Position numbers and translations under genes: made by a program. This document shows, in pieces, positions 4,070 to 61,069 of a DNA stretch of 64,000 nucleotides. Below the pieces are notes generated by a model. It made no database searches and had not been told where the DNA came from. It saw only the letters and a program-made list of their open reading frames with translations. The stretch comes from Escherichia phage P479: sequence record MW269952.1, one strand, 5' to 3'. Each line of letters begins with the position of its first letter. The stretch's first letter is position 1.

Positions 4070-4071
4070 AA

Positions 4072-8952: not shown

Positions 8953-9405
8953 ATGATTATCAATGCAAACTCTTGGCATGCTCGTTTCCACGATAAATTT
9001 TATGACCGCCATTCTCGTCCGCACTCATTGTGTGCTTACTTTTGGAAAATGGTTTGGGCCTGTTTTGTTTGTGCCATTTTTATCGGTAGTATGGTTTTTG
9101 GATTAACTGTCGCGGGGGCTGGTGTATTAGAGCATTTCTTTGTATTAAGTACCCCGGTTGGTTTAGGTTTAGGGTTTATTTTAGGACTAGCTACACTGGC
9201 TCTTATTCTGGCGGTAGCATTTGGTTTAATGTATGGTCTAATGAATTTATGGTCCTGGTATGATTTACGTAAAGAAGAAAAGGAATGGCAACGTATTCTA
9301 GCCAAACGTGAAGGAAAGGAAACTAAAGAAAACATCGTTATTCAATACATTAAAGCTCGTAAATCTAAGATGTGTCCTGTAATCCACTTCGAGGACAAAA
9401 AATGA
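8953..9405 (+). CDS. Hypothetical multi-pass membrane protein
   Basis: 150 aa; hydrophobic helices in residues 30-110; overlaps the next gene. Confidence 0.45.
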   Translation: MIINANSWHARFHDKFYDRHSRPHSLCAYFWKMVWACFVCAIFIGSMVFGLTVAGAGVLEHFFVLSTPVGLGLGFILGLATLALILAVAFGLMYGLMNLWSWYDLRKEEKEWQRILAKREGKETKENIVIQYIKARKSKMCPVIHFEDKK

Positions 9406-16376: not shown

Positions 16377-16850
16377 ATGTTGTTGACTGGCAAATTATAC
16401 AAAGAAGAAAAACAAAAACTTTATGATGCACAAGCTGGTAAGTGTCCAATTTGCCACCGTGATTTGGACTCTGATGTTCAGGCCAACCATCTTGACCATG
16501 ACCACGAATTGAACGGACCAAAAGCCGGTAAGGTTCGCGGGTTACTATGCAATCTGTGCAATGGAACAGAAGGACAAATGAAGCATAAGTTCAGCCGTTC
16601 GGGTCTAAAAAGTCGCGATGTTGACTACCTGGAATGGTTAGAGAGTTTGCTTGTCTATCTGAAATCTGATTATACCGAAAACAATATTCACCCCAATTTT
16701 GTAACAGACAAAGCCAAAGAGTTTGGCCGCCTGGGGAAAGAAGAAATGATTCGGGAAATGCTTTTGAATGGTATGACTTATAATGAATCTGACACCAAAA
16801 CACAATTAATGGCTTCATTTAAGAAGCAGCTTAGAAAGAGTTTAAAATGA
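16377..16850 (+). CDS. 49: Endonuclease VII (Holliday-junction resolvase)
   Basis: 157 aa; MLLTGKLYKEEKQK.YDAQ.GKC.IC.R...HLDHDHELNGPKAGKVRGLLCNLCN nearly identical to T4 gp49. Confidence 0.95.
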   Translation: MLLTGKLYKEEKQKLYDAQAGKCPICHRDLDSDVQANHLDHDHELNGPKAGKVRGLLCNLCNGTEGQMKHKFSRSGLKSRDVDYLEWLESLLVYLKSDYTENNIHPNFVTDKAKEFGRLGKEEMIREMLLNGMTYNESDTKTQLMASFKKQLRKSLK

Positions 16851-18664
16851 CAATTGAAAACGAAATTGAAGGATTGATTCATAAAACTAATAAAGACCTT
16901 TTAAACGAGAATGCTAATAAAGATTCTCGTGTTTTTCCAACTCAACGTGACCTTATGGCTGGTATTGTATCTAAACACATTGCCAAAAATATGGTCGCGT
17001 CTTTTATTATGAAAGCACATGAAAGCGGAATTATTCATTTCCATGATATTGATTATTCCCCTGCTCTTCCATTTACTAATTGTTGTTTAGTAGATTTAAA
17101 AGGAATGCTTGAGAACGGATTTAAGCTCGGTAATGCGCAGATTGAAACTCCCAAATCAATCAGTGTTGCTACTGCAATTATGGCACAAATTACTGCGCAG
17201 GTTGCTTCCCATCAATATGGTGGAACGACTTTTGCGAATGTAGATAAAGTACTTTCTCCTTATGTTAAACGTACCTATGCGAAACATATTGAGGACGCGG
17301 AAAAATGGCAAATCACCGATGCATTGAATTATGCCCAATCTAAAACAGAAAAAGACGTATATGATGCATTCCAAGCTTATGAATATGAAGTAAATACTCT
17401 CTTTAGCTCAAATGGTCAGACTCCTTTTGTGACAATTACATTTGGTACCGGAACTGACTGGACCGAACGAATGATTCAGAAAGCAATTCTGAAAAATCGT
17501 ATTAAAGGGCTTGGTCGTGATGGGATAACTCCTATTTTCCCTAAACTTGTTATGTTCGTTGAAGAAGGTGTTAATCTTTATAAAGACGACCCGAACTATG
17601 ATATTAAGCAGCTTGCTTTAGAGTGTGCAAGCAAAAGAATGTATCCTGATATCATTTCAGCTAAGAATAACAAAGCTATCACTGGTTCATCTATTCCTGT
17701 TTCTCCAATGGGTTGTCGTAGTTTCTTGAGCGTATGGAAAGATTCGACTGGTAATGAAATTCTTGATGGACGTAATAATCTTGGTGTTGTAACATTAAAT
17801 CTTCCTCGTATTGCGTTAGATTCTTATATTGGAACGCAGTTCAATGAACAGAAATTTACTGAATTGTTCAATGAGCGAATGGATTTATGTTTTGAAGCTT
17901 TGATGTGTAGAATTAGTTCCTTAAAAGGAGTTAAAGCGACTGTTGCTCCTATTCTTTACCAAGAAGGTGCATTCGGGGTTCGTCTTAAACCTGATGATGA
18001 TATAATTGAGTTATTTAAAAACGGTAGAAGTTCAGTGTCCCTGGGATACATTGGTATTCACGAATTGAATATTCTTGTCGGTCGTGATATTGGACAGGAA
18101 ATTTTGACTAAAATGAATGCTCGTCTTAAGCAGTGGACCGAAAGAACCGGATTTGCTTTTAGCTTGTATTCTACTCCTGCTGAAAACCTGTGTTATCGCT
18201 TCTGTAAACTTGATACCGAAAAATATGGAAGTGTAAAAGATGTTACCGATAAAGGCTGGTACACTAATAGTTTCCATGTTTCAGTAGAAGAAAATATCAC
18301 TCCGTTTGAAAAGATTTCTCGCGAAGCACCATATCATTTCATTGCGACAGGTGGTCACATTTCTTATGTTGAACTTCCTGATATGAAAAATAACCTAAAA
18401 GGTCTTGAGGCTGCATGGGATTATGCCGCACAACATTTAGATTATTTTGGTGTTAATATGCCAGTAGATAAATGTTTTACGTGCGGAAGTACCCATGAAA
18501 TGACTCCTACTGAAAACGGATTTGTTTGTTCTATTTGTGGAGAAACTGACCCTAAAAAGATGAACACAATAAGAAGAACATGTGGCTATTTGGGGAATCC
18601 GAACGAACGTGGATTTAATCTCGGCAAAAATAAAGAAATCATGCATAGGGTTAAACACCAATGA
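16847..18664 (+). CDS. nrdD: Anaerobic ribonucleoside-triphosphate reductase
   Basis: 605 aa; glycyl-radical C-terminus and Cys4 zinc site (CFTCGS...CSICG); uninterrupted. Confidence 0.9.
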   Translation: MTIENEIEGLIHKTNKDLLNENANKDSRVFPTQRDLMAGIVSKHIAKNMVASFIMKAHESGIIHFHDIDYSPALPFTNCCLVDLKGMLENGFKLGNAQIETPKSISVATAIMAQITAQVASHQYGGTTFANVDKVLSPYVKRTYAKHIEDAEKWQITDALNYAQSKTEKDVYDAFQAYEYEVNTLFSSNGQTPFVTITFGTGTDWTERMIQKAILKNRIKGLGRDGITPIFPKLVMFVEEGVNLYKDDPNYDIKQLALECASKRMYPDIISAKNNKAITGSSIPVSPMGCRSFLSVWKDSTGNEILDGRNNLGVVTLNLPRIALDSYIGTQFNEQKFTELFNERMDLCFEALMCRISSLKGVKATVAPILYQEGAFGVRLKPDDDIIELFKNGRSSVSLGYIGIHELNILVGRDIGQEILTKMNARLKQWTERTGFAFSLYSTPAENLCYRFCKLDTEKYGSVKDVTDKGWYTNSFHVSVEENITPFEKISREAPYHFIATGGHISYVELPDMKNNLKGLEAAWDYAAQHLDYFGVNMPVDKCFTCGSTHEMTPTENGFVCSICGETDPKKMNTIRRTCGYLGNPNERGFNLGKNKEIMHRVKHQ

Positions 18665-19131
18665 ATTATGATAGATTTTATCCTTGCGATTTTGTGAATG
18701 GCCCTGGATGCAGGGTCGTTCTTTTCGTTACAGGTTGTTTGCATAAATGTGAAGGGTGTTATAATAAATCAACATGGAATGCTAGAAATGGTGTTCCATT
18801 CACTGGTGAAACACTAGAACAATTAATTGAATGTTTGAATAATGATTATATAGAAGGATTAACTATAACCGGGGGAGACCCTTTCTATCCCGATAACCGA
18901 GATGTTATTCACTCTGTGGTTCAAACTATTAAAAATCTTTATCCCAATAAAAGCATTTGGATGTGGACAGGATATAAGTTTGAAGATATTAAACAACTAG
19001 AAATGCTTAAATATGTTGATGTTATTATTGATGGGAAGTATGAGAAAAATCTTCCGACCAAAAAACTGTGGCGAGGGTCAGATAATCAGCGACTTTGGTC
19101 AAATACCGATGGGGTGTGGAAACATGATTAA
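18661..19131 (+). CDS. nrdG: Anaerobic RNR activating enzyme (radical SAM)
   Basis: 156 aa; CxxxCxxC radical-SAM cluster (CLHKCEGCYN). Confidence 0.9.
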   Translation: MNYDRFYPCDFVNGPGCRVVLFVTGCLHKCEGCYNKSTWNARNGVPFTGETLEQLIECLNNDYIEGLTITGGDPFYPDNRDVIHSVVQTIKNLYPNKSIWMWTGYKFEDIKQLEMLKYVDVIIDGKYEKNLPTKKLWRGSDNQRLWSNTDGVWKHD

Positions 19132-21711: not shown

Positions 21712-21970
21712 AATAAAACTCTCTAATTACGATAAAAACTTGGAAATGATTACTATGAAAGAAGAACTCCTGAATGATGTCCGCTTTACGGGTTATGCAG
21801 TTCAATTTAATGGTGATGGGGTTCTCCAGATTGAAGGTGACCACTTTATTATTGAATATGAATTCCATCAGTATTGGTTGTATGCCAAAGATGAAGTAGG
21901 TGGGATTGATTATGTTGACCAGTTTGATAAGCTTGACGATGTTTTAGAAGCTGCCCAGATGGTGTACTGA
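21704..21970 (+). CDS. Hypothetical acidic protein
   Basis: 88 aa; start uncertain. Confidence 0.35.
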   Translation: MIKIKLSNYDKNLEMITMKEELLNDVRFTGYAVQFNGDGVLQIEGDHFIIEYEFHQYWLYAKDEVGGIDYVDQFDKLDDVLEAAQMVY

Positions 21971-22236
21971 TGCACATCAATCATACAATGATATCCATCC
22001 AGGACCTGGGAACGTTTTGGGTGGATGAATTCATGAAAATAACATTCTTCCCACATGCAGAAGGGTATGGCTCTTGGGAGTCCCATATCGGCATGTTGAA
22101 TGAAGGGCAATACCGCAACGAGCATGACCGTCTGATGGAATTCATTAGTGATGCCGAGGTTATCCCTTATATTGATATTCACGAATTTAAGGCAATTATG
22201 GAGAAGGTCTTTCAGGCGTACTGTTTACTTCGCTAA
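21970..22236 (+). CDS. Hypothetical protein
   Basis: 88 aa. Confidence 0.4.
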   Translation: MHINHTMISIQDLGTFWVDEFMKITFFPHAEGYGSWESHIGMLNEGQYRNEHDRLMEFISDAEVIPYIDIHEFKAIMEKVFQAYCLLR

Positions 22237-22284
22237 TGCTTTGTATTAAGGATGATATAATATTCATATACTAAGTGAGGCGAT

Positions 22285-22842
22285 ATGAACGAAATTAAAT
22301 TAACCAAGAATAACTATGTAAATAATAAAGAGCTTTTGAAAGCTATTTCGGAGTGGAAACAGAAGCTGAATGCGAACACCGACCCGAACAAAATTATTCG
22401 CCAGAACGATGTTATCGGTCTGGCGATTATGCTTATAGCCGAAGGTCTTAGCAAACGTTTCAACTTCTCCGGATATACCCAATCCTGGAAGCAAGAAATG
22501 ATAGCAGACGGAATTGAGGCCGCAATAAAAGGTCTTCACAACTTCGACGAAACAAAATACGATAATCCACATGCTTACATAACAATGGCTTGCTTCAATG
22601 CTTTCGTTCAGCGTATCAAAAAAGAACGTAAAGAAATGGCAAAGAAATATAGCTACTTCGTCCATAACGTATATGATTCACGTGACGACGATATGGTGGC
22701 TCTGGCTGATGAAACATTTATCCAGGACATCTATGACAAAATGACACAGTACGAATCCTCTTTAGTTAAAGCGCCAGGGTCTGATAAGAGCGCCAAAGAT
22801 AAAGAAGGTGATTTGGATTTTTTATATGGAACATCAATTTGA
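22285..22842 (+). CDS. 55: Late-transcription sigma factor gp55
   Basis: 185 aa; NYVNNKELL...[36 protein letters not shown] matches T4 gp55. Confidence 0.95.
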
Positions 22843-23059
22843 TATTACCGATTTTTTAGATAAAATCGAGGAAGACTTTACGGCTCTCCCATATTTCATT
22901 AAACTTTATCTACGAGACATAAAAGGTCTTCCAATTGATATCGACCCTTTAAACGTCCGGAATCTGGAATTTACTTCACCGGATAATAACGTTGATTACC
23001 GTTATCATGTGGATAATGCTAATCTATATTTTACAATTGAGTTAACTCCCAAGGATTAA
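22826..23059 (+). CDS. Hypothetical protein
   Basis: 77 aa from ATG 22826; overlaps gene 55 end. Confidence 0.35.
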
Positions 23060-23060
23060 T

Positions 23061-23372
23061 ATGCAAGCTCCAGATATTTCTCAACTGACCGATAAGCAGA
23101 TTGAAGAAGCACAGGAACGTCTCGAAGAAGCGAACGCACTCGAAGCAACCAGTCAAGCCGCGAAGATTCTGAAAAAGAATGCTCGTGAAATTGCACGACT
23201 GAACAAGCATGCTCAAGGCGCAGTGCTGGAAAACAATTTTGAAGCATACAAATACGCTTTAGTTAAACTGCGTGGGATTTACCGCCAACCCGTTACGGAA
23301 GACCTGATTAAGTTGATGTGGGATTCTACTCGCAAACAAATTTGGGAAATCGTAAATGGCATTAGTAAATAA
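23061..23372 (+). CDS. Hypothetical helical protein
   Basis: 103 aa. Confidence 0.4.
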   Translation: MQAPDISQLTDKQIEEAQERLEEANALEATSQAAKILKKNAREIARLNKHAQGAVLENNFEAYKYALVKLRGIYRQPVTEDLIKLMWDSTRKQIWEIVNGISK

Positions 23373-23562
23373 ACCTTTTAAACGGCTTCTTATTGGAGCC
23401 GCTTTCAGACTTCGCTCATACGGTAATATCTGTATCAAGCAGTCCGAAACCGAATGTAAGCTCCTTGGCCCTTATGGTGTTCCAAAAGGTATTGTTAAAA
23501 TTGAGCCGACATCCAAAGTTTGGGTAGACTCACATCAACTTAAGAAATGGTGGCAACGATGA
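23356..23562 (+). CDS. Hypothetical protein
   Basis: 68 aa. Confidence 0.35.
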   Translation: MALVNKPFKRLLIGAAFRLRSYGNICIKQSETECKLLGPYGVPKGIVKIEPTSKVWVDSHQLKKWWQR

Positions 23563-23783
23563 TAACATGGACAGCAGGCTAATGAACGACGAATACGAAA
23601 AAGTTTAAGAGGTCATATGAATGACGAATTCGACGGATTTTGATAAGATTAAATCTGACAAAAATGAGATGATACTTCAATTTGAAGCCGCTCGCATTAA
23701 AGCAGAAAATGAAGGTACTATTACCTATAAGCCTATCAAGTTCAGGTCTTCTCACGAACCTCTGTACGGTGTATTAATTGGAA

Positions 23784-23808
23784 AGGAAGCCTAGCGCTTC
23801 CTTTTTTG
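23784..23808 (+). terminator. Rho-independent terminator
   Basis: AGGAAGC-ctagc-GCTTCCT followed by TTTTTT. Confidence 0.65.
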
Positions 23809-23991
23809 CTTTATATTCGGGATGATAAAATGAACCAACTGAGGAGAACATATGGAATTATTTTTAGGATATGTCGTGTTATTCATGGCATTCTACACAT
23901 TCACACGAGCTTGTTGGATAGGATTCTTTTCTACTCCTGACGGGTTCATTTCAATAATTTTATTTTGCACTGCGATAACGGCGCTTGGCTT

Positions 23992-25011
23992 ATGAAAATT
24001 TTAAATTTAGGTGATTGGCACTTGGGTGTCAAAGCTGACGACCCATGGGCTCAAAACATTCAACGCGATGGTATTTTACAGGCGATTGCATATTCCAAAG
24101 CGAATGGGATTAAAGTCTGGATTCAATATGGTGATATTTTTGACGTCCGTAAGGCCGTAACGCATAAGACGATGGAATTCAGCCGTGAGATTATGGAACT
24201 CCTTCGTGAAGCAGGAATTACTATGCACACGATAGTCGGGAATCATGACATGAATCTGAAGAATAAGATTCATCCTAATGCTATCACCGAACTCCTGAAT
24301 AAGTATGACCATGTTAAAATCTATGATAAGCCAACGACTGTTGATTTTGACGGTTGCCAGATTGATATGATTCCATGGATGTGCGACGAGAACGCAACTG
24401 ACATTCATCAACACATCAAAACTTCTGGGGCTGAATATTGCATCGGTCACTGGGAATTAACCGGGTTTTATTTCTATAAAGGATTGAAATCCCACGGGCT
24501 TGAGCCTGATTTCCTTAAGAAGTACAAGCAAGTTTGGTCTGGTCACTTCCACACAATTTCAGAAGCTGCAAACGTTAAGTACATCGGGACACCATGGACA
24601 TTAACAGCAGGTGATGAGAACGACCCGCGCGGGTTCTGGGAATTTGATACCGAAACCGAAGAGATGAAATTTATTCCGAATGAAACCACCTGGCATCGGA
24701 AGATTTTCTATCCAAACGAAACTATTAACTACGACGACTTCAAAGACTTATCAGTCCGTGTTATTGTAGAAAAAGTCGATAAAGACCTGACCAAGTTCGA
24801 ATCTGAATTAGAAAAGCGTGTGCATGAATTGCGTGTTGTCAATAAGGTTGATAACAGTGTTGATACGACTGACTCCGAAGAAGAGTTAGACATAAAACGC
24901 TTAACTGATATGATGGCAGAATATATTGATGCATTACCTGACACCAATGAGAAAGAATCAAAAGCTCTTAAAGCATTGGCCAACAAATTATATCTTGAGG
25001 TGCAACCGTGA
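23992..25011 (+). CDS. 47: Recombination endonuclease subunit gp47 (Mre11-like)
   Basis: 339 aa from ATG 23992 (MKILNLGDWHLG); phosphoesterase motifs GDIFD, GNHD, GHFH. Confidence 0.9.
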   Translation: MKILNLGDWHLGVKADDPWAQNIQRDGILQAIAYSKANGIKVWIQYGDIFDVRKAVTHKTMEFSREIMELLREAGITMHTIVGNHDMNLKNKIHPNAITELLNKYDHVKIYDKPTTVDFDGCQIDMIPWMCDENATDIHQHIKTSGAEYCIGHWELTGFYFYKGLKSHGLEPDFLKKYKQVWSGHFHTISEAANVKYIGTPWTLTAGDENDPRGFWEFDTETEEMKFIPNETTWHRKIFYPNETINYDDFKDLSVRVIVEKVDKDLTKFESELEKRVHELRVVNKVDNSVDTTDSEEELDIKRLTDMMAEYIDALPDTNEKESKALKALANKLYLEVQP

Positions 25012-25271
25012 AACTTTATGATTTTAATGAAGCGGGGCTTGAACATATCCGCGAATGTGATGTGGTTGACGACGATAATCAACCGAATACTATTAAGTAT
25101 TGGTTTGAAGCTATCACTGACCGGGAAACCGGTCAACTTATCAAAGTCTATGTAGTCACCGATTGGGCCGTAGAATTTAGCTTTAATGTAATGGAAGATG
25201 ATACCCCAGAGACATTAATTCATATGGCTGAATCATGCATCAAGGATGCTTATTATGATGAAGACTTTTGA
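25008..25271 (+). CDS. Hypothetical acidic protein
   Basis: 87 aa; between genes 47 and 46. Confidence 0.4.
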   Translation: MKLYDFNEAGLEHIRECDVVDDDNQPNTIKYWFEAITDRETGQLIKVYVVTDWAVEFSFNVMEDDTPETLIHMAESCIKDAYYDEDF

Positions 25272-25464
25272 ATTTAATCTTGATGATGAATTTGTAGCAA
25301 ATATTGATTATACCGAAGAAGATTCTAGATATGTCGGAATAATTTATATCACATCAAAAACGGCGCAGGGAGTGGTTTGCATGGCTGAATTTGATGAATG
25401 CTTTTTAGATTATGATGATATGATAGAATGGTCTAAAAGATACATTAAAAGGAATCTTTTGTGA
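25246..25464 (+). CDS. Hypothetical acidic protein
   Basis: 72 aa. Confidence 0.35.
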   Translation: MLIMMKTFEFNLDDEFVANIDYTEEDSRYVGIIYITSKTAQGVVCMAEFDECFLDYDDMIEWSKRYIKRNLL

Positions 25465-27143
25465 AGACTTTTAAGCTTAAGAAAGTTATCTATAAAAATA
25501 TTATGTCGGTTGGTGCTCAACCGATTACTGTTGAACTGGATAAAGTCCAGAAAACTCTGGTCACCGGCAAGAATGGTGCGGGTAAATCTACGTTCCTTGA
25601 AGCGGTTACCTTTGCTATGTTCGGTAAGCCTTTCCGTGATGTAAAGAAAGGCCAGTTGATTAACTCGAGCAACAAAAAAGATATGCTCGTTGAATTGTGG
25701 ATGGAATATGATGGAAAAGAATACTATATCAAACGCGGGCAAAAACCCAATGTTTTTGAAATCTCTTGTGGCGGTAAACGTCTTGATGAATCTGCCAGCA
25801 GTAAAGACTTCCAAGCGGAATTTGAACAGCTCATCGGAATGTCCTATGCAAGCTTCAAACAGATTGTCGTACTCGGCACAGCTGGATATACCCCTTTTAT
25901 GGGCCTATCCACTCCTGCAAGAAGAAAACTTGTCGAAGACCTTTTAGAGGTTTCTGTACTGGCCGATATGGATAAGCTGAACAAATCTCTTATCCGCGAA
26001 GTCAATAGTCAAATCCAGGTGATGGATGTGCAGCATGACGGGATTGTTCAACAGATTAAAATCTATCAGGACAACGAAGACCGTCAAAGAAAATTATCAG
26101 GTGATAATCTGTTGCGGCTGCAAACGATGTATGATGAACTTGCCACAGAAGCACGTGGAATCAAGACAACTATCGAAGAAGCAACGACAAGACTGACCGA
26201 GATAATCTTGGGAGAAGACCCTGAGCATGAACTCACGAAGTTAAAGCAGGAATCATTCCTGATTAAGTCGAAGATAGACGATTACCGAAAGGTTGTTGGT
26301 CTGTACGAGAAAGGTGGTTGCTGTCAGACTTGCGCCAGTCAGTTGCATCCAGGAGACCCTATTGTCGCCAGGATTGAGTCAAAGATTGAAGAATGTAATG
26401 TATCAGCTGATAACCATAAAGCTCGCCAGAACGCTGTTCAGGAGCAATTTGATGCGTATTCTGCTGCAAGACAAAAACAACGTACAATAGCTCAAGACAT
26501 TCAAACCAAGAAACAAACCTTAGTCCAGACTGTCGAAAAAGCTAAAAAGGTTAAAGCATTAATCGAGCAAGCTAAGTCAGAATTCATCGACCATGCAGCA
26601 GACATTAAAATGCTTCAAGACCAGCTTGATAAAATAGTCAAACAGAAATCCGACCTTGTGATGGAAAAATATCAACGTGGTATTCTAACGGATATGTTGA
26701 AAGATTCCGGTATCAAAGGCGCGATTATTAAGAAATATATTCCCATCTTTAATAAGCAGATAAACGCTTATCTTAAAGTTATGGAAGCTGATTATAGTTT
26801 TACGTTAGATGAAGAGTTCAACGAAACGATTAAATCTCGTGGACGTGAAGACTTCAGCTATGCATCATTTAGCCAGGGTGAAAAAGCTCGTATCGATATC
26901 GCATTGCTGTTTACATGGCGTGATATTGCTGCGAAAGTATCTGGTGTGCAAATTAGTACGTTGATTCTGGATGAGGTCATGGATTCAGCCACTGACGCCG
27001 AAGGCATCAAAGCTATCCAGGCAATTATTAATAAATTGGAAGGTCAAAACGTGTTTATCATTAGCCATCGTGAACACGACCCAGAAGCATATGGACAGCA
27101 TCTTCAAATGAAAAAAGTCGGTCGATTTACTGTTCTGGAATGA
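25461..27143 (+). CDS. 46: Recombination endonuclease subunit gp46 (Rad50/SbcC-like ATPase)
   Basis: 560 aa; Walker A GKNGAGKST, coiled-coil middle with CxxC zinc hook (CCQTCAS), signature FSQGE and Walker B LILDEV. Confidence 0.9.
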   Translation: MKTFKLKKVIYKNIMSVGAQPITVELDKVQKTLVTGKNGAGKSTFLEAVTFAMFGKPFRDVKKGQLINSSNKKDMLVELWMEYDGKEYYIKRGQKPNVFEISCGGKRLDESASSKDFQAEFEQLIGMSYASFKQIVVLGTAGYTPFMGLSTPARRKLVEDLLEVSVLADMDKLNKSLIREVNSQIQVMDVQHDGIVQQIKIYQDNEDRQRKLSGDNLLRLQTMYDELATEARGIKTTIEEATTRLTEIILGEDPEHELTKLKQESFLIKSKIDDYRKVVGLYEKGGCCQTCASQLHPGDPIVARIESKIEECNVSADNHKARQNAVQEQFDAYSAARQKQRTIAQDIQTKKQTLVQTVEKAKKVKALIEQAKSEFIDHAADIKMLQDQLDKIVKQKSDLVMEKYQRGILTDMLKDSGIKGAIIKKYIPIFNKQINAYLKVMEADYSFTLDEEFNETIKSRGREDFSYASFSQGEKARIDIALLFTWRDIAAKVSGVQISTLILDEVMDSATDAEGIKAIQAIINKLEGQNVFIISHREHDPEAYGQHLQMKKVGRFTVLE

Positions 27144-27900
27144 GCCTCTTATTGAGGCTTCATTTTGCAGTTATCAAAATGCCAACGTTTCATATTGGCT
27201 GGCGTACCGACTACATTACAATGTGGACACTGAATTTTGGGGTCCACCTTTTTCTTCCGGTTTGGATTGGATTTGCAGAATTGTTGGTGAGTGGATATAA
27301 CACACTTTTTACCTTCAAGACCACAAAATTCACAAGTTAAAATTTCATGTTTAGCTTGTTTTAATCCTACTGAAATTTTTTGCTTTTGTTTTTCTGGAAT
27401 AGTATGAACAACCTTGTTTGGACCTTTGGAACAGTTATCAAAATGCCAACGATTCATATTGCCAACGAGACCGGTTTTTCCACAGTGTGGACATTCAACT
27501 CTCGGTTTTAATTTGGCGGATTCTGACATTTTCTTTCTGGTTTCATCGGAGAAAATTTTATTTTGTTGAGCTTCCAAGTTTTTACGACGAAGCCATCCAA
27601 ATAATTTGTTTTTGCTTCTGTCGGCGTTTGGTGAGGAAACTGTCATCATGCGCGCGGCATAGACCAAAGAAGCATTATTTGGATGCATTTTGACCAACAG
27701 TTGATGACAAACGAAATGTTCCTCGGGAGTTAAATCAACAAGATTTGAAGCGTCGTCTGCCCCACCCATACAACGGGGTATAATGTGATGACTTTCAGAG
27801 TATGTGGTTAATTTGCGATTCAATGCTCTGCTAATAAGCTTTTGGTAAATGATGTTATAATTCATATCAGACCCTTGTTTGATACTGCAACGGATAATAT
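27144..27900 (-). mobile_element. Homing-endonuclease insertion between genes 46 and 45
   Basis: Only antisense gene in a co-directional replication-gene block; HNH family. Confidence 0.55.
27149..27865 (-). CDS. Free-standing HNH homing endonuclease with three zinc-ribbon repeats
   Basis: 238 aa from the internal Met (MNYNIIYQKL); HNH motif SHHIIPRCMGGADDASNLVDLTPEEHFVCH; three CPHCGKTG/NMNRWHFDNC-type repeats; AAGGG Shine-Dalgarno. Confidence 0.75.
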   Translation of the reverse strand: MNYNIIYQKLISRALNRKLTTYSESHHIIPRCMGGADDASNLVDLTPEEHFVCHQLLVKMHPNNASLVYAARMMTVSSPNADRSKNKLFGWLRRKNLEAQQNKIFSDETRKKMSESAKLKPRVECPHCGKTGLVGNMNRWHFDNCSKGPNKVVHTIPEKQKQKISVGLKQAKHEILTCEFCGLEGKKCVISTHQQFCKSNPNRKKKVDPKIQCPHCNVVGTPANMKRWHFDNCKMKPQ

Positions 27901-28121
27901 TATTTATGAGCAATTTTTTAACCGGGCAGCATTTACTGGCTGTCCCTGAAATTAAACGGTATGTGTTAGTTAATACCTTTTCGAAAGATGAACACCTTGT
28001 TACTGAACGTGACTTACAAAACGCTTTCGGTGAAGAATATGTTAAAATAATCGCGAACAGACACAATGCCTGGTTCGCATATGAATACTTTGATTAATTG
28101 ATAATGAATAGAGAGAATATT

Positions 28122-31512: not shown

Positions 31513-34227
31513 ATGCAAGAATTTTATTTAACTATCGAACAAATCGGTGACAACCTACACGAACGATATATTGACAAGAATGGTCATGAACGTGTTCGTG
31601 AAATCCCTTATGCTCCATGCTTGTTTATGCACGCCCGTGAAGACCAGGCTGCAAAGTATACAGACATCTATAATAAAGGTTGTGTGAAAAAAGAATTCGA
31701 TTCCATGCGTGATGCATCCCAGTGGATGAAGCGAATGAATGACATGGGTCTCGAAGCTATGGGTATGGATGACTTTAAACTCGCATACTTGTCCGACCGT
31801 TACCCACACGAAATCAAATATGATTCAAGTAAAATCCGTGTTGCTAACTTCGATATCGAGGTGACATCTCCTGACGGGTTCCCTGAGCCGTCTGAAGCAC
31901 GTCACCCTATTGATGCCCTGACGCACTATGATTCGGTAGACGATAAATTCTATGTCTTTGACCTTTTGGGCTCACCATACGCCACTGTGGAGCAATGGTC
32001 TATTGATATTGCTGCTAAGCTGCAGGAAGACGGTGGTGATGAAGTCCCTGAAGAAATCCTGGAAAAAATTGTTTATATGGCTTTCGATTCAGAAGAAGAA
32101 ATGCTCCAGCAGTATTTGGTATTCTGGAACGAGAAAACTCCGGTTATGTTAACTGGTTGGAACATTGAGAAGTTTGATATTCCATATATCTACAACCGCC
32201 TTAAAAATGTATTTGGTGAAGCTACAGCAAAACGTCTGAGCCCACATCGTCGTACAAAAGTTAAGGTCATTAACAACGGCTTTGGTGAAGAACAAGAAAT
32301 CATTCAGATTCTGGGTATCTCTGTTCTGGATTATCTGGACCTGTATAAAAAGTTCAGCTTCACAAACCAACCGTCTTATTCGTTGGATTATGTTGCGGAA
32401 TCTGAACTGGGTGTTGGTAAACTCCCGTATGATGGCCCGATTTCTAAACTGCGCGAATCAAATCACCAGCGGTATATTTCTTATAACATCATCGACGTTT
32501 ATCGTGTTGTGCAGATTGACCGTAAGCGGCAGTTTATTAACCTGAGTCAGTCAATGGGTTATTATGCAAAGATGCAGATTCAGTCTGTATTCAGCCCAAT
32601 CAAAACTTGGGATGCGATTATCTTTAACAGCCTGAAGACTCAAAACAAAGTCATTCCGGAAACCAAATCGCATGTTCGTCAATCGTTCCCTGGTGCATTT
32701 GTTAAGGAACCGATTCCAAACGCGTACAAATATGTAATGAGCTGTGACTTAACATCTCTGTATCCGAGCATCATCCGACAGATTAACATCAGTCCAGAAA
32801 CGATTGCCGGTTCATTTGCTCCAGCCCAGATGTATGAATACATCGCAGGAACTGCTGACCGTCCATCTGATACATTTAGTTGTGCTCCAAATGGTATGAT
32901 GTATTTTAAAGATGTTGCGGGTATTATTCCGACAGAAGTCACCAAGGTGTTTAATCAGCGTAAAGAACACAAAGGCTATATGCTTGCGGCTCAACGTAAT
33001 GGTGAACTGATTAAGGAAGCTCTGCGTAATCCAGGAACTGGTACAACCGAGCCTGAAGTTGATTATCGTTATGACTTTGATGATAATATGAAAACAACCT
33101 TGCATGGTCTGAATCAAACAGTTCTGAATGGTATGTTGTACAAAGCGCAGATGGAAGAAGTTGCAGGCATGACCGCACAGATTAACCGTAAACTACTTAT
33201 CAACAGTTGTTATGGTGCTCTGGGTAATATCTGGTTCCGTTACTTTGACCTGCGAAATGCGACCGCGATTACATCTTTCGGACAACTTGCATTGCAGTGG
33301 ATTGAGCGTAAAGTTAACGAATACTTCGATAGTGTTTGTGGGACAAGCGGCGAAACTTATGTATTCTATGGCGATACTGACTCCATTTATATCCAGTGCG
33401 ATAACCTGATTAAAAAGGTTGGTGGCGAATCTAAATTCCGTGATACAAACCACCTGGTTGACTTCATGGACAAGTTTGCGAAAGACCGTCTGGAACCGGC
33501 AATCGATAAAGCTTTCCGTGAGCTGGCTGAATACATGAACAACAAACAGCACCTTATGTTTATGGACCGTGAAGCGATTGCATGTCCTCCGCTAGGTTCT
33601 AAAGGTGTGGGTGGATTCTGGACGGCGAAGAAGCGTTATGCGCTGAACGTGTACGATATGGAAGGCACACGATATGCTGTTCCGAAACTGAAAATCATGG
33701 GTCTGGAAACTCAAAAGTCGAGTACTCCAAAGGCATGTCAGAAAGCTCTGAAAGAATGTATCCGCCGTATGCTGCAAGAAGGTGAAGAATCTCTGCAGAC
33801 ATACTTCAAGGAATTCAATAAGGAATTTAATGAGCTTAACTACATGACCATCGCTGGTGTATCATCGGTTAACAACATCCAGAAATATAATGAAGGTGGT
33901 TTCCCTGGATTTAAGTGTCCGGCTCATATCAAAGGTGTGCTTGCATATATGCGTGCAACTAAAGGCCTGAAGACTGTTCCACAAATCATGGAAGGGGAAA
34001 AGGTGTATGTACTTCCTCTTAAAGTTGGCAACCCGTTTGGTGAAACCGTGATTGCATGGCCATCAGGGATTGAACTCCCGATTGAAATTCGTGACCAAGT
34101 CCTGCAGTGGATGGACTACAACACACTGTTCCAGAAGACTTTTGTTAAGCCATTAACAGGTTTCTCTGAAGCCGCAAAGGTTGATTACGAAAAGAAAGCA
34201 ACTCTTTTTGACATGTTTGACTTTTAA
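31513..34227 (+). CDS. 43: DNA polymerase gp43 (family B, with 3'-5' exonuclease)
   Basis: 904 aa; exo motifs FDIEV and YNIIDV, polymerase motifs SLYPSII, KILINSCYG and YGDTDS; no intron. Confidence 0.95.
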   Translation: MQEFYLTIEQIGDNLHERYIDKNGHERVREIPYAPCLFMHAREDQAAKYTDIYNKGCVKKEFDSMRDASQWMKRMNDMGLEAMGMDDFKLAYLSDRYPHEIKYDSSKIRVANFDIEVTSPDGFPEPSEARHPIDALTHYDSVDDKFYVFDLLGSPYATVEQWSIDIAAKLQEDGGDEVPEEILEKIVYMAFDSEEEMLQQYLVFWNEKTPVMLTGWNIEKFDIPYIYNRLKNVFGEATAKRLSPHRRTKVKVINNGFGEEQEIIQILGISVLDYLDLYKKFSFTNQPSYSLDYVAESELGVGKLPYDGPISKLRESNHQRYISYNIIDVYRVVQIDRKRQFINLSQSMGYYAKMQIQSVFSPIKTWDAIIFNSLKTQNKVIPETKSHVRQSFPGAFVKEPIPNAYKYVMSCDLTSLYPSIIRQINISPETIAGSFAPAQMYEYIAGTADRPSDTFSCAPNGMMYFKDVAGIIPTEVTKVFNQRKEHKGYMLAAQRNGELIKEALRNPGTGTTEPEVDYRYDFDDNMKTTLHGLNQTVLNGMLYKAQMEEVAGMTAQINRKLLINSCYGALGNIWFRYFDLRNATAITSFGQLALQWIERKVNEYFDSVCGTSGETYVFYGDTDSIYIQCDNLIKKVGGESKFRDTNHLVDFMDKFAKDRLEPAIDKAFRELAEYMNNKQHLMFMDREAIACPPLGSKGVGGFWTAKKRYALNVYDMEGTRYAVPKLKIMGLETQKSSTPKACQKALKECIRRMLQEGEESLQTYFKEFNKEFNELNYMTIAGVSSVNNIQKYNEGGFPGFKCPAHIKGVLAYMRATKGLKTVPQIMEGEKVYVLPLKVGNPFGETVIAWPSGIELPIEIRDQVLQWMDYNTLFQKTFVKPLTGFSEAAKVDYEKKATLFDMFDF

Positions 34228-34296
34228 GTGTTTACAACGGCAATGGATTGCCGTATGATTACCGCATCAACTGATGAATAACTTAAGGATATTAAA

Positions 34297-34539
34297 ATGG
34301 AAACATTAATTGCGGGTACTGTTGTTCTTGGGGCTGGTTCTTTCTTCCTGGCTGCACTGACATATTTTCTGCCGTGGATTATCGCGCTGCTGCGTGGTAC
34401 CAAAAGTAATTGCGGAATCTTCTTTGTTAACCTCCTGTTAGGTTGGACAATGGTCGGATGGTTTATTGCATTTATCTGGGCACTCGTTGCTGAACGTAAA
34501 TCAAACGCACAAGTAATTATCATCAAGGAAGCAAAATGA
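34297..34539 (+). CDS. imm: Small membrane protein, Imm-like by position
   Basis: 80 aa; two transmembrane helices; directly after gene 43 as in T4. Confidence 0.4.
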   Translation: METLIAGTVVLGAGSFFLAALTYFLPWIIALLRGTKSNCGIFFVNLLLGWTMVGWFIAFIWALVAERKSNAQVIIIKEAK

Positions 34540-34680
34540 AGATAATTACAATTATTGTACTGATTGCATTTTTTAGTATGTCAATCTACTGGGCAATAAT
34601 GACTCCACATATGATTCCAACTTTAATTTTGGGTTGGGTATTTTTGGGGCTCCAAGCCCGCTATGAATGTTTTAATTAGG
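34537..34680 (+). CDS. Hypothetical small membrane protein
   Basis: 47 aa (MKIITIIVLIAFFSMSIYWAIMTP...), below ORF-track cutoff. Confidence 0.3.
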
Positions 34681-34687
34681 AAGCAAA

Positions 34688-35191
34688 ATGAAAAAGTTAG
34701 CTATCGCAGCTGTTATGCTGCTATCTGGTTGTGCTTACCAGGGCGATGTTGTTAATGCCAACGAGATTGGTAAAGCGCGAATTGCTGCAGACCGTCAGGT
34801 GCACAATGGTTCCTTTGATTTCAAAGGTGGTACTGGACTTATCTACAAACGCGACAACAATCAATGTGGAAACAACTGCGCGAAATATGCTCAACAAGAA
34901 ATTGAGTACAAACGCGAGCAAGCTGCGAAGCATGACGAAATCATTGCCAAGCTGGAAGCAGAAACCAAGCGACAAAATGACCTGGATACTGTTAACCAGA
35001 TTTCACAGGTCTGCATGTCATACATCAATATGCAGATAAACATCATGCGCGCAGAAGCTTATCAGGCAGCAGAGACGGGTTCTCCAAAAGCTAATGAGTA
35101 CCGCGATATGTATCAGCGTTCTGCTCAAAACCGTCTGAGCTATATTAATAAATGTGTAGCTAAAGAGAAAGCACGCCAAGGTATTAACTAA
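34688..35191 (+). CDS. Predicted lipoprotein
   Basis: 167 aa; signal peptide with lipobox LLSGC; occupies the slot where T4 has gene 42 and beta-gt. Confidence 0.5.
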   Translation: MKKLAIAAVMLLSGCAYQGDVVNANEIGKARIAADRQVHNGSFDFKGGTGLIYKRDNNQCGNNCAKYAQQEIEYKREQAAKHDEIIAKLEAETKRQNDLDTVNQISQVCMSYINMQINIMRAEAYQAAETGSPKANEYRDMYQRSAQNRLSYINKCVAKEKARQGIN

Positions 35192-35420
35192 ACAAACTGC
35201 GAGAAGAATATTATGATTGGTATGTTATTGATTAGCCTATGGTTGTTGTCTGCATTTGGTATTGGTTTTATGTACTGGTGGGACAAACGTCAGACCCGGA
35301 AGATTGTTGAACGTGCAATTAATCGTGGATTCAATCGTTAATTGCTCTGAAAATACAGTGATATAATTATCCTATCTTAAACCTGTGAGAAAAATATAAT
35401 GGTGCCTATGGAAAAAATGA

Positions 35421-36599
35421 ATGTCTATTGCAGATTTGAAATCCCGTTTGATTAAAGCTTCTACATCCAAAATGACCGCGACTCTTACCAAGTCCAAGTT
35501 TTTTAATGATAAAGATGTAGTTCGTACAAAAATCCCGATGCTGAACATTGCAATCAGCGGTGCACTAGATGGTGGTATGCAGTCAGGTTTGACTATTTTT
35601 GCTGGTCCGTCAAAACACTTTAAATCCAATATGGGTTTAACGATGGTCTCTGCATATATGAACAAATACCCCGATGCAATCTGTTTGTTCTATGATTCAG
35701 AATTTGGTATCACAGAAGCATATCTTCGTGCAATGAAAGTTGACCCGGAACGTGTTATCCACACGCCAATCCAGTCGGTTGAACAATTGAAAGTTGATAT
35801 GGTTAACCAGCTTGAAGCAATTGAGCGTGGTGAAAAAGTCATTATCTTTATTGACTCAATCGGTAACATGGCGTCGAAAAAAGAAACAGAAGATGCGATG
35901 AACGAAAAAGTTGTTGGCGATATGACTCGTGCTAAATCCCTGAAATCTCTGTTCCGTATTGTTACTCCATATTTTAGCATCAAGGATATTCCTTGTGTCG
36001 CGGTTAACCATACAATCGAGACGATTGAGATGTACAGTAAAACCGTTATGACCGGCGGTACAGGTGTTATGTATTCCGCGGACACCGTATTCATTATCGG
36101 TAAACGTCAGATTAAAGAAACTGGTAAAGAACTTGAAGGCTTCCAATTTGTTCTGAACGCCGAAAAATCCCGTATGGTCAAAGAGAAAAGTAAATTCTTC
36201 ATTGATGTAAAATTCGATGGGGGTATTGACCCGTATTCTGGCCTGCTTGATATGGCAATGGAAATCGGATTTGTGGTGAAACCAAAAGTTGGTTGGTATA
36301 ACCGTGAATATCTTGATGTTGAGACCGGTGAAATGGTCCGCGAAGAAAAATCATGGCGTGCAAAAGATACTAACTGCACCGAATTCTGGGGCCCGCTGTT
36401 CAAACACGAACCTTTCCGTGATGCAATCAAACGCCATTACCAACTGGGTGCAATCGATAGCAATGCTGTTGTTGATGCCGAAGTTGATGCGCTTATTGCT
36501 TCCAAGGTTGAAAAATACACTGCTCCTGAAGGTAAGACAAAACCGTCCGCTGCAGATATCGAAAACGATTTAGATATGATGGAAGACCTTGATGAATGA
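35421..36599 (+). CDS. uvsX: RecA-like recombinase UvsX
   Basis: 392 aa; DLKSRLIKASTSK..., Walker A GPSKHFKS, close match to T4 UvsX along its length. Confidence 0.95.
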   Translation: MSIADLKSRLIKASTSKMTATLTKSKFFNDKDVVRTKIPMLNIAISGALDGGMQSGLTIFAGPSKHFKSNMGLTMVSAYMNKYPDAICLFYDSEFGITEAYLRAMKVDPERVIHTPIQSVEQLKVDMVNQLEAIERGEKVIIFIDSIGNMASKKETEDAMNEKVVGDMTRAKSLKSLFRIVTPYFSIKDIPCVAVNHTIETIEMYSKTVMTGGTGVMYSADTVFIIGKRQIKETGKELEGFQFVLNAEKSRMVKEKSKFFIDVKFDGGIDPYSGLLDMAMEIGFVVKPKVGWYNREYLDVETGEMVREEKSWRAKDTNCTEFWGPLFKHEPFRDAIKRHYQLGAIDSNAVVDAEVDALIASKVEKYTAPEGKTKPSAADIENDLDMMEDLDE

Positions 36600-42941: not shown

Positions 42942-43457
42942 ATGGCTCATTTTAATGAATGTTCTCAACTGATTGCTGGTGTTGATAAAGCTCAGGGCGC
43001 TTATGATAATGCAATTTTTGAAGGCACTGACCCACTGCAAGTTATGCTTGATATGCAGAAATCATTGCAGGTTCGTCTGGCTAATGACCGTGATTATTGC
43101 TACCATCCAGATAAATTAGCGACTGCTGGTGATGTTGTTGCTTGGATGCGCGAACAAAAAGACTGCATTGACGATGAATTCCGTGAACTGATTACTTCAT
43201 TGGGTGAAATGTCTAAAGGTGAAAAAGATGCATCTGCTGTCTGGAAAAAATGGAAGGCTCGTTATACTGAAGCGCAAGCTAAACCAATTTCAGAAATGTC
43301 CCCAGAAGACCAGCTTGAAATTAAATTTGAATTAATTGATATCATGCATTTCGTATTCAATATGGCTATTGGTTTGAATATGTCTGCGGAAGAATTGTTC
43401 AAACTGTATTATCTGAAAAATGCCGAGAACTTTGCGAGACAGGACCGTGGCTATTAA
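42942..43457 (+). CDS. 56: dCTP pyrophosphatase gp56 (MazG-like)
   Basis: 171 aa from ATG 42942; MAHFNEC...DPLQVMLDMQ...YCYHPDKL.TAGDVV.WMREQKDCIDDEFREL.TSLGEMS.GEK.ASAVWKKWKARY nearly identical to T4 gp56. Confidence 0.9.
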   Translation: MAHFNECSQLIAGVDKAQGAYDNAIFEGTDPLQVMLDMQKSLQVRLANDRDYCYHPDKLATAGDVVAWMREQKDCIDDEFRELITSLGEMSKGEKDASAVWKKWKARYTEAQAKPISEMSPEDQLEIKFELIDIMHFVFNMAIGLNMSAEELFKLYYLKNAENFARQDRGY

Positions 43458-44103
43458 GGCAAGATTTCATAGGACGTATATAATTAAAGTTAAAACGCCG
43501 AAAGGCGTTTTTTGGTATGGTGGTAAACACGAAACCAATGTACTAGACCCATATAAAGACCGATATTCAGGCTCCGGAAAAATACTCTGGAACATATATA
43601 AAAAGTATGGAGTCAAATATCAAATTCGCTGGTTTGTTGGTCACCAGAATAGGGAAATGGCGTTTGAACATGAAAGATATCTAATATCATTATTAAATTC
43701 TAAACATGGTTCAAACTGTATTAATATTTTACCTGGTGGGCAGGGCGGAGGCGGATATGAATGGACTGATGAAATGAAGTTGGCCCAAACACTACGTTTA
43801 AATAAGCCCGAAACTAAAGCTAAAATGAAAAGCGCCCAATGTGTTGCTCAAAATCGCCCTGAACGCAAATCCAGACAATCAAAAGCAATGAGCGAGTTTT
43901 ATGCAAATGGTGGAAATAAAATCGTATCAGAAGCCACATCTAAAGCGCAAAGAACTGCAGCTCATTGGCATGAACCATTGAAAAGTGAAATCTATCAGAT
44001 TTGGCTTTCATTAGGTAAACCCGGTGGAGCTTCTGCTGTGGTTAAAGCACTTAAGGGAAAATACGAAACAACCCCCAGCGCACTTAAACTTTTAATATAT
44101 TAA
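43420..44103 (+). CDS. segF: GIY-YIG-like homing endonuclease (SegF-like by position)
   Basis: About 227 aa; YIIKV...VFWYGGKH, HERYLISLL and NILPGG resemble GIY-YIG elements; between gene 56 and soc as T4 segF; start uncertain, overlaps gene 56 end. Confidence 0.5.
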   Translation: MPRTLRDRTVAIKARFHRTYIIKVKTPKGVFWYGGKHETNVLDPYKDRYSGSGKILWNIYKKYGVKYQIRWFVGHQNREMAFEHERYLISLLNSKHGSNCINILPGGQGGGGYEWTDEMKLAQTLRLNKPETKAKMKSAQCVAQNRPERKSRQSKAMSEFYANGGNKIVSEATSKAQRTAAHWHEPLKSEIYQIWLSLGKPGGASAVVKALKGKYETTPSALKLLIY

Positions 44104-53981: not shown

Positions 53982-54782
53982 ATGATGATTAATGAAGTAT
54001 TCGGGATAATAAAAAATAAATTTCCTGATTATATTCCACCATCGAGTGGAAATAGTGGGATTTATATAATTTATAATTTAATATCTCAAAAATATTATAT
54101 AGGAAGTTCAAATGATTTTCATCGTAGAATTGCCACGCATTTTCGGAATTTATCCAAAGGTGTTGGCATAAACAGCCATTTACAGTTTGCATATGACAAA
54201 TACGGTAAAGAATCATTTGTATGCGAACTAATAGAAAATATAGAAGTTTATAATAAAAAATATTTCTTGAAAAGAGAAAGTTTCTGGATAACTGAATTAA
54301 ATTCTATCAAAAACGGTTATAATATAACGTTGGCGGATTTTGGTGGTGACACAATGTCCAATCATCCAAGAAAAGCGGAAATTAATTTACTTAAAGGCGA
54401 AGCCGTTAAAAAACGGAATAAACTGTTAGATAAAACCGAATATAATAGAATATATGGAACTGGTGTTAAAAGAAAGCCATACCCCGATGATTTTGGTTAT
54501 AATGTCTCCCTGCGTAAAGCAGGCGAAAATCATCATTTCTTTGGCAAACATCTTTCTCTTGAACACAAAGATAAATTATCAAAATTATTCTCTGGTGGTA
54601 AAAATCCCGAGGCTAAAACGTACTCTATAAATGGGGTCATATTCACAACCCGAAAAGAAGCCGCCGAAGTTCTTGGTATTAGTTATCCTACATTACGAAA
54701 ACGCTGCAAATCCGATGATGTAAAATGGTCCAGTTGGAAATGTTTAGGTTATACTAAAAATTTAGAGGTCAAAAATGATTAA
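53982..54782 (+). CDS. GIY-YIG homing endonuclease (Seg-like)
   Basis: 266 aa; GIYIIYN...YYIGSS GIY-YIG motif, catalytic R/E/N spacing like I-TevI; AT-rich coding; immediately upstream of gene 39. Confidence 0.75.
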   Translation: MMINEVFGIIKNKFPDYIPPSSGNSGIYIIYNLISQKYYIGSSNDFHRRIATHFRNLSKGVGINSHLQFAYDKYGKESFVCELIENIEVYNKKYFLKRESFWITELNSIKNGYNITLADFGGDTMSNHPRKAEINLLKGEAVKKRNKLLDKTEYNRIYGTGVKRKPYPDDFGYNVSLRKAGENHHFFGKHLSLEHKDKLSKLFSGGKNPEAKTYSINGVIFTTRKEAAEVLGISYPTLRKRCKSDDVKWSSWKCLGYTKNLEVKND

Positions 54783-60799: not shown

Positions 60800-61069
60800 A
60801 TGATTAAGCATTTCAATGTGTCAGACCGTGACATCAAAGTTTCAAATCTCCGGGGTCATCATTATGCAGGAATAGTTTACTGCGGTAAGCTCATCAAGCA
60901 TGAAGGTGATGTTCACTATGGTTGGTTGGAATGTGATGAAGTAGTTGTTGGGGAATTCCCTGACCCGGATTCTGATACATTTGATGCTCATGACCGTTTG
61001 TATTATGGCGAGCTTCACATCCGTGGAATCGTCGGTATCGATGAGGTCGTAAATGATTCAGAAGAGTAA
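60800..61069 (+). CDS. Hypothetical acidic protein
   Basis: 89 aa. Confidence 0.4.
   Translation: MIKHFNVSDRDIKVSNLRGHHYAGIVYCGKLIKHEGDVHYGWLECDEVVVGEFPDPDSDTFDAHDRLYYGELHIRGIVGIDEVVNDSEE

Follow-up and report, generated by a model that had tools for sequence, protein, structure and literature searches.

We analysed a 64,000-nucleotide stretch of the genome of Escherichia phage P479 (sequence record MW269952.1; this whole stretch is called the window in the following) with respect to its missing cytosine-modification genes. Gene 42 and the glucosyltransferase genes are absent from the positions that they occupy in T4, one of which is the interval between gene 43 and uvsX. This confirms the central observation of a preliminary description of the same sequence. 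Our favored explanation, which we hold with moderate confidence, is that the modification cassette was lost rather than relocated, and that cytosine is replaced via the product of td, a thymidylate synthase (TS) with an aspartate at position 177 (Td(Asp177)), a route that would give 5-methylcytosine (5mC) DNA. The cytosine of the phage DNA is then probably replaced by 5mC. We infer Td(Asp177) as the responsible enzyme, 5mC as the resulting base, and the origin of thymidine monophosphate (dTMP). Neither this explanation nor the correlation across four lineages described below was found in our literature searches, and as far as the literature was searched, the Td(Asp177) lead is new.

Judging from its closest relatives, the window is derived from a T4-like coliphage of the genus Gaprivervirus (VR7/SP18/DK-13 type). 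The region from gene 43 to uvsX (31513-36599) is 98.3% identical to that of Escherichia phage DK-13 and 94-98% identical to those of SP18, VR20, VR26, VR7, and other members of this genus (Tevenvirinae), and the first 25 kb of the window show the same pattern of relatives. The G+C content of the window is ∼39-40%. At least 32 phage records in GenBank span at least 80% of the 43-uvsX stretch in one piece, and the short interval described below is therefore common to them. Two complete genomes were used for comparison, DK-13 as a close relative and JS98 as a member of the genus Dhakavirus, which is grouped with Gaprivervirus in PMC8056088. All whole-genome statements on P479 rest on DK-13 as the complete close relative.

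The interval between the DNA polymerase gene 43 on its left border (31513-34227) and the recombinase gene uvsX on its right border (35421-36599) contains only imm, a lipoprotein gene, and two tiny membrane open reading frames (ORFs) of 47 and 42 amino acids, which is the content that had been described. All of these genes lie on the plus strand. The superinfection-immunity membrane protein encoded by imm (34297-34539) is 52% identical to T4 Imm (E 1e-23) and 68% identical to JS98 Imm. The adjacent 47-amino-acid membrane ORF (34536-34679) shows 53-56% identity to JS98 orf44, is also a homologue of RB69 ORF054c, and carries the name '42.1' in the VR7 annotation. It is followed by a gene for a lipoprotein of 167 amino acids (34688-35191; 52% identity to JS98 orf43, E 3e-44) with the lipobox LLSGC and an Imm.1-like N-terminus (T4 Imm.1 match, E 0.002); the ratio of nonsynonymous to synonymous substitution rates (dN/dS) of this gene is 0.05 relative to VR7. 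The 42-amino-acid membrane ORF (35213-35341) immediately precedes the conserved promoter region of uvsX, and 114 bases across the uvsX start show 86% DNA identity between the window and JS98. An unannotated homologue of this ORF is found in the orf38-uvsX spacer of JS98 (tblastn E 2e-05, JS98 21947-22015), where the small membrane ORF itself extends over positions 21947-22060 of the record (locus L007). The second T4 position in question, the interval between genes 55 and 47 (22843-23964, plus strand), holds only small ORFs related to a-gt.5, a-gt.4, a-gt.3, and a-gt.2, collinear with the VR7 annotation. The earlier statement that only small ORFs are present at this site is therefore correct, these being the homologues of a-gt.2 to a-gt.5.

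The corresponding genes of JS98 are arranged as 43, imm, orf44, orf43 (lipoprotein), orf42, orf41, orf40, orf39, orf38, uvsX. The 4.2-kb cassette orf42-orf38 (22069-26243 of the JS98 record) thus lies between the lipoprotein gene and uvsX, and T4 carries gene 42 and beta-gt at the equivalent position, which corresponds to 35192-35212 (plus strand) of the window. The five JS98 genes are homologues of the RB69 genes for arabinosyl-5-hydroxycytosine; the cassette functions comprise UDP-arabinose formation, a phosphatase, a TMK-like kinase, a TS-homologue 5-hydroxy-dCMP synthase, and arabinosyltransferase 1 (PMC13326640). Both flanks of the cassette are conserved between JS98 and the window. By this comparison, the window cleanly lacks the 4.2-kb cassette; the junction lies at 35192-35212, and no remnant is left. 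Because T4, RB69, and JS98 all retain a TS homologue at this locus, it is parsimonious to assume a loss in the lineage of Gaprivervirus.

We searched the window and the complete DK-13 genome for known modification genes. With T4 gp42, alpha-gt, and beta-gt as queries, tblastn gave no match better than E 0.4 in either sequence, and T4 Dam as well as the JS98 cassette proteins orf38-orf42 had no tblastn match in the window or in DK-13. No arabinosyltransferase is encoded between rIIA and gene 39, where all ORFs are shorter than 100 amino acids. A Pfam scan was performed with the window ORFs of at least 50 amino acids (upstream of 16.3 kb also with shorter ones), concatenated in chunks with Gly-Ser linkers; it left out 16 long genes that are named by their position and the T4-like gene order (nrdD, nrdG, 43, 44, 45, 46, 47, 62, regA, uvsX, 41, 61, dda, 39, rIIA, rIIB). 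Among the scanned ORFs, these 16 genes being excluded, the scan detected no Thymidylat_synt, glycosyltransferase, or DNA methyltransferase family. The 'Serglycin' matches obtained were artefacts of the Gly-Ser linkers joining the ORFs. A TS profile of 94 sequences, including gp42 and JS98 orf39, was run by unfiltered hmmsearch against six-frame ORFs of at least 70 amino acids from DK-13 and of at least 45 amino acids from the window. It identified a single gene, td of DK-13 (E 2.7e-115; the runner-up scored E 1.8), and no TS-fold ORF among those of the window. Thus, tblastn, Pfam scan, and TS profile all support the previous statement that no ORF of the window has TS-fold or glycosyltransferase features.

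The preliminary description had considered that modification genes in their canonical form might sit elsewhere in the genome. We looked for gene 42 together with a glucosyltransferase gene in DK-13 and found no homologue of gene 42 or of a glucosyl- or arabinosyltransferase gene anywhere in this genome. This agrees with PMC8056088 and PMC12115623, according to which the canonical modification genes are absent across the whole genus Gaprivervirus. PMC8056088 (2021) describes the Gapriverviruses as lacking any known enzyme for a non-canonical base, yet possessing DenA, DenB, Alc, and dCTPase, and proposes 'an unknown protein' for their base modification. The mismatch between the genes present and the biology of these phages is thus on record in the literature (2021, 2025) as a puzzle without a solution. 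A replacement cassette of Gaprivervirus-specific genes was considered and rejected, since a comparison of the DK-13 and window ORFs with the JS98 genome gave no candidate enzyme. Among the DK-13 ORFs of at least 70 amino acids, only those for homing endonucleases, NrdD/NrdG, internal head proteins, and a collagen-like protein, together with a few others of up to 168 amino acids, have no counterpart in JS98.

The only TS-fold gene of DK-13, td, overlaps frd and is located outside the stretch homologous to the window. In the alignment, DK-13 Td shows the motif GLPFDIGSY, compared to GLPFNIASY in JS98 Td and E. coli ThyA, which corresponds to an exchange of Asn177 for Asp. The numbering of the E. 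coli ThyA sequence used agrees with this assignment (Cys146, Asn177). Td is ∼48% identical to E. coli ThyA, the domain PF00303 is assigned (precomputed) to the Td protein P0001, and the closest solved structure to Gaprivervirus Td is that of T4 Td (1TIS; match E 5.7e-128). The TS fold, the catalytic Cys146, and the residues for folate binding and hydride transfer are all present in the Td proteins of the close relatives. Besides Asp at E. coli position 177, Gaprivervirus Td keeps R21, E58, W80, Y94, R126/127, C146, H147, R166, S167, D169, H207, and Y209, and its C-terminal tail is conserved. Co-varying changes are Q162L, A179G, A182G, and F149L, and at position 162 all Td-type Asp proteins have Leu or Met in place of Gln or Ser.

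We surveyed the distribution of this residue among the 120 proteins closest to DK-13 Td in a collection of 5.8 billion proteins. Asp177 was present in all four Gaprivervirus Td clusters (86-99% identical to DK-13 Td), of which that of SP18 alone comprises 73 member sequences. All 114 other T4-like Td proteins among these 120 (64-70% identical to DK-13 Td) carry Asn; those with a name are mostly from Tequatrovirus phages, in addition to Bp7. Asp177 was also found in protein P0060, which is encoded on a metagenomic T4-like contig (SRR24146912_91236, locus L012, gene 3953-4831) in a frd.2-frd-td context. This protein is 67% identical to DK-13 Td, and the many lineage-specific residues that it has in common with Gaprivervirus Td suggest that a deeper Asp177 Td clade exists among enterobacterial T4-like phages. 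Across a set of 149 diverse TS representatives, this position is occupied by Asp in 7 and by Asn in 125. T4 gp42 (Asp179) and JS98 orf39, which are both specific for deoxycytidine monophosphate (dCMP), also have Asp in column 177.

Residue 177 has been described to dictate the substrate specificity of TS for deoxyuridine monophosphate (dUMP) or dCMP (PMC8670742). According to this study, the exchange Asn177Asp moves the enzyme from dUMP to dCMP with 5-methyl-dCMP as the product, and Asp177 is enriched in viral contigs with modified cytosine, of which it is the top distinguishing residue. Moreover, five of seven natural Asp177 TS homologues and the Xp12 enzyme produced 5-methyldeoxycytidine in vivo together with T4 gp1 (bioRxiv 10.1101/2024.12.05.627091). 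The same work reports that cytosine is wholly replaced by 5mC in the phages Xp12 and PaMx74, and that 5mC-selective deaminases provide thymidine triphosphate without a second TS.

The absence of a known cytosine-modifying enzyme has also been reported for the Acinetobacter phages 133 and ZZ1 and the Morganella phage MP1, and DenB, Alc, and dCTPase are reported in 133 and ZZ1 (PMC8056088). The Td proteins of all three phages carry Asp (GKPFDIASY in 133, GMPFDIASY in ZZ1, GLNFDLIQAY in MP1), and those of 133 and ZZ1 have a Met at position 165, as does gp42. As a control, Td of the Acinetobacter phage Acj9, which carries a gp42-type cluster, has Asn. Overall, Asp177 coincided with the lack of a gp42-type enzyme in four out of four lineages tested, and Asp was found in 0 of 116 controls. 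Pairwise identities separate the enterobacterial Asp-type Td proteins (Gaprivervirus, P0060) from the 133/ZZ1 pair, with values of at most 69% to each other or to Asn forms. These low values therefore suggest, from pairwise identities and not from a tree, that the switch to Asp arose more than once. Based on Td similarity, there would be at least two groups of lineages, Gaprivervirus with P0060 and 133 with ZZ1; MP1 is not placed. We give about even chances to the broader view that several T4-like lineages lost the gp42-type cassette and that in each of them the TS of the phage independently became a dCMP methylase through Asn177Asp, with fully 5mC-substituted DNA and with thymidylate provided by deamination of 5-methyl-dC nucleotides.

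Genes that act on cytosine nucleotides or cytosine DNA are retained. Gene 56 (42942-43457, plus strand) encodes a dCTPase/dUTPase homologue with 77% identity to T4 gp56 (E 1.5e-90); it is a clear orthologue, but the near-identity to the T4 protein that had been stated does not hold. The positional denB candidate (61053-61646, plus strand) proved to encode an endonuclease IV homologue with 49% identity to JS98 DenB (E 1e-46) and is annotated as 'DNA endonuclease IV' in DK-13. Its T4 counterpart is a nuclease specific for cytosine DNA. The set for host-DNA shut-off also includes ndd for the nucleoid disruption protein (63371-63820, plus strand; Pfam Phage_T4_Ndd, E 1.6e-67), and DK-13 retains cd, gp1, alc, denA, denB, and ndd. 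In a comparison of P479 with DK-13, both of them without the cassette, dN/dS was 0.07 for gp56 and 0.04 for denB, and both genes are therefore in use. This strong purifying selection upholds the argument of the preliminary description that a dCTPase together with DenB makes sense only if cytosine is replaced. Identity to JS98 is 47-49% for gp1, Alc, and DenB, compared to 66-76% for Td, Cd, gp56, and DenA. The stronger divergence of gp1, Alc, and DenB as base-recognising proteins fits a change of the base, but is only suggestive.

For a member of the genus, the DNA itself has been studied. In PMC6326788 (2019), VR7 DNA was digested with restriction enzymes that respond to base modification, both in the presence and in the absence of T4 β-glucosyltransferase. 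The authors concluded that 'VR7 has modified cytosines' and that its DNA is unglycosylated, while VR5 and T4 are glycosylated and T4147 is hydroxymethylated. BREX blocks VR7 fully, like T4147 (same source). Of the two possibilities raised in the preliminary description, a different cytosine-modification pathway is therefore favored, by the modified but unglycosylated cytosines reported for VR7 and by Asp177 in the only TS-fold gene of the genus.

The route via Td(Asp177) would start from a T4-like ancestor in which the 43-uvsX interval still held a cassette for cytosine modification, which was then wholly lost. In such a phage, gp56 would convert deoxycytidine triphosphate (dCTP) to dCMP, and Td(Asp177) would reductively methylate dCMP to 5-methyl-dCMP, releasing dihydrofolate. 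The deoxynucleoside monophosphate (dNMP) kinase gp1 and the host Ndk would then form 5-methyl-dCTP for incorporation by gp43. The source of dTMP would be the cd deaminase acting on 5-methyl-dC nucleotides, host ThyA, or both. Alc, DenA, and DenB would act on the cytosine DNA of the host only, the non-glycosylated 5mC DNA of the phage being spared for this reason.

Several points weigh against this proposal. The td gene lies outside the window, so that no product of the window genes would form the modified base, and its presence in P479 is deduced from relatives that are 94-98% identical. Gln165 is kept in Gaprivervirus Td, in contrast to the Met of gp42 and of the enzymes of 133 and ZZ1; the change in specificity may thus be incomplete, or the enzyme could accept both substrates (dUMP/dCMP). 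The lack of a gp42-type enzyme in 133, ZZ1, and MP1 is taken from PMC8056088, and the evidence for VR7 stems from the figure legend in PMC6326788, the identity of the base being deduced from sequence and digests. Furthermore, McrBC, McrA, and Mrr should target fully 5mC-substituted DNA, but K-12 hosts are recorded for some Gapriverviruses. Growth on such hosts would require anti-restriction functions, for which the many internal head proteins are candidates. Finally, the distinction between a methyl and a hydroxymethyl group is not certain from sequence.

Alternatively, an enzyme that has escaped recognition elsewhere in the genome, encoded by a small ORF or shared with other T4-like phages, could make another cytosine derivative, with Asp177 being incidental or serving only nucleotide salvage. 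We regard this as unlikely. It gains some weight from two papers that give the base as 'unknown', from about half of the genes having no assigned function, and from the restriction of our Pfam scan to ORFs of the window. But the comparison of DK-13 and the window with JS98 gave no enzyme-sized genus-specific gene, and the match between Asp177 and a missing gp42-type enzyme in four lineages, with Asp in none of the 116 controls, is hard to explain as a coincidence.

Sugar-less 5-hydroxymethylcytosine (5hmC) is the main alternative to 5mC as the base itself, and it is less likely. Here, the Asp177 Td would act on dCMP but hydrate the intermediate as gp42 does, resulting in non-glycosylated 5hmC DNA. 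Td and T4 gp42 do have Asp177 in common, and VR7 resembles the hydroxymethylcytosine-only mutant T4147 in its response to BREX (PMC6326788). However, His147, the folate-binding C-terminus, and all TS residues missing from gp42 are present in Td, and the dihydrofolate reductase gene frd, which overlaps td, is retained, as expected if dihydrofolate is produced. An engineered Asn-to-Asp TS yields 5-methyl-dCMP (PMC8670742), and in PMC6326788 the authors who performed the β-glucosyltransferase test called T4147 'hydroxymethylated', but VR7 merely 'modified'. Because of the complete TS scaffold, the retained frd, and this published wording, we consider 5hmC rather improbable, slightly more so than an unrecognised enzyme.

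The phage DNA could also contain ordinary cytosine, with gp56, DenB, and Alc kept for other roles (dUTPase, host shut-off) with altered specificity. In T4, dCTPase in the absence of modified dCTP is lethal, which weighs against this view. Alc, DenB, and gp1 are indeed the most diverged proteins relative to JS98 (47-49% identity), but the low dN/dS values of gp56 and denB show strong purifying selection, and PMC6326788 reports modified cytosines for VR7. In addition, Asp177 leaves no obvious dTMP synthase and would be pointless unless dCMP is the substrate. We therefore judge ordinary cytosine to be very improbable. A simple rearrangement, with canonical gene 42 and glucosyltransferase genes elsewhere in the genome, has practically nothing in its favor, as it is refuted for the close relatives by tblastn and the TS-profile hidden Markov model over complete DK-13 (empty apart from td), contradicted for the genus by PMC8056088 and PMC12115623, and at odds with the unglycosylated VR7 DNA reported in PMC6326788.

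The proposed route via Td(Asp177) resembles the 5mC pathway of Xp12 and PaMx74 in its single TS-fold enzyme with Asp at the position of Asn177, in the presence of a dCMP-deaminase-family gene and a dNMP kinase, and in the replacement of cytosine at the nucleotide level without a sugar that we propose here. It differs in being placed in a T4-like genome, where the enzyme is a near derivative of T4-type Td proteins (65-69% identity), has its gene beside frd at the td locus, and occurs alongside gp56 dCTPase, Alc, DenA, and DenB, and in that product and dTMP origin are deduced. With the hydroxymethylcytosine-glucose system of T4, Gaprivervirus shares gp56, gp1, alc, denA, denB, and ndd as well as the gene order around 43-uvsX and 55-47, but it lacks gp42 and the glucosyltransferases, and its DNA is reported as unglycosylated for VR7. 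The arabinosyl-5-hydroxycytosine cassette of RB69 and JS98 (PMC13326640) occupies the same locus with homologous flanks in the sister genus Dhakavirus, whereas all five genes, and an arabinosyltransferase between rIIA and gene 39, are absent here. Engineered TS (N177D in E. coli, N229D in L. casei) carries the identical exchange, with the rest of the TS scaffold complete, and is a dCMP methylase in this form. In contrast, the Asp177 described here is natural, fixed genus-wide, accompanied by co-varying changes, and found in the only TS of the phage.

Gapriverviruses are frequent among sewage isolates and in panels of phage-therapy candidates, and two papers explicitly leave their safety and transduction risk unjudged, since the nature of their DNA is not known. 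If the proposal holds true, a whole genus of therapeutic-candidate coliphages would possess an Xp12-like nucleotide economy in a T4 chassis, one cytosine modification having been exchanged for another by cassette loss and a specificity change of a housekeeping enzyme. It would account for the published sensitivity of VR7 to BREX and for possible problems in bisulfite-, nanopore-, and restriction-based handling of these genomes, and the phages would be expected to be susceptible to McrBC, to MspJI-type enzymes, and to further defences that depend on 5mC. For annotation, residue 177 should then be inspected before a phage gene is named 'thymidylate synthase'.

Some additional features were observed. 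The small ORFs at 571-873 and 930-1229 of the window and at 161.8-163.3 kb of DK-13 have a common N-terminus of the MKTYQEFITE type, like T4 internal head proteins (capsid-targeting sequence). These genus-specific ORFs could encode injected anti-restriction proteins, which would be relevant to a DNA with non-glycosylated modified cytosine. The ORF at 2418-2696 (92 amino acids), at the position of JS98 vs.4, contains an Acb2/Tad1 hairpin domain (Pfam E 1.5e-13) and is likely an anti-CBASS/anti-Thoeris sponge. Genes for an anaerobic ribonucleotide reductase, nrdD (605 amino acids) and nrdG (156 amino acids), are located at 16847-19131 between genes 49 and 55.8. They seem to be variable within and between genera, because JS98 has no homologue and the collinear VR7 annotation lacks them. 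Three probable homing endonucleases are absent from JS98: an HNH-type protein of 305 amino acids (27149-28066, minus strand) between 46 and 45.2/rpbA, a protein of 227 amino acids (43420-44103, plus strand) that overlaps the end of gene 56 at the VR7 segF position, and a GIY-YIG/NUMOD3/I-TevI-type protein of 266 amino acids (53982-54782, plus strand; Pfam E 2e-10) that abuts gene 39. DK-13 contains at 139144-139890 (plus strand) a collagen-like Gly-X-Y ORF of 248 amino acids without a JS98 homologue, on the strand opposite to the neighbouring early genes; the matching stretch of the window (∼10.4-10.5 kb) has only a short gap. The window also encodes a Macro-domain protein at the JS98 tk.4 position (4428-4907; Pfam E 1e-06) and a RlaP/pol-beta family nucleotidyltransferase that is named nrdC.11 in VR7 (9372-10412; Pfam E 6e-10).

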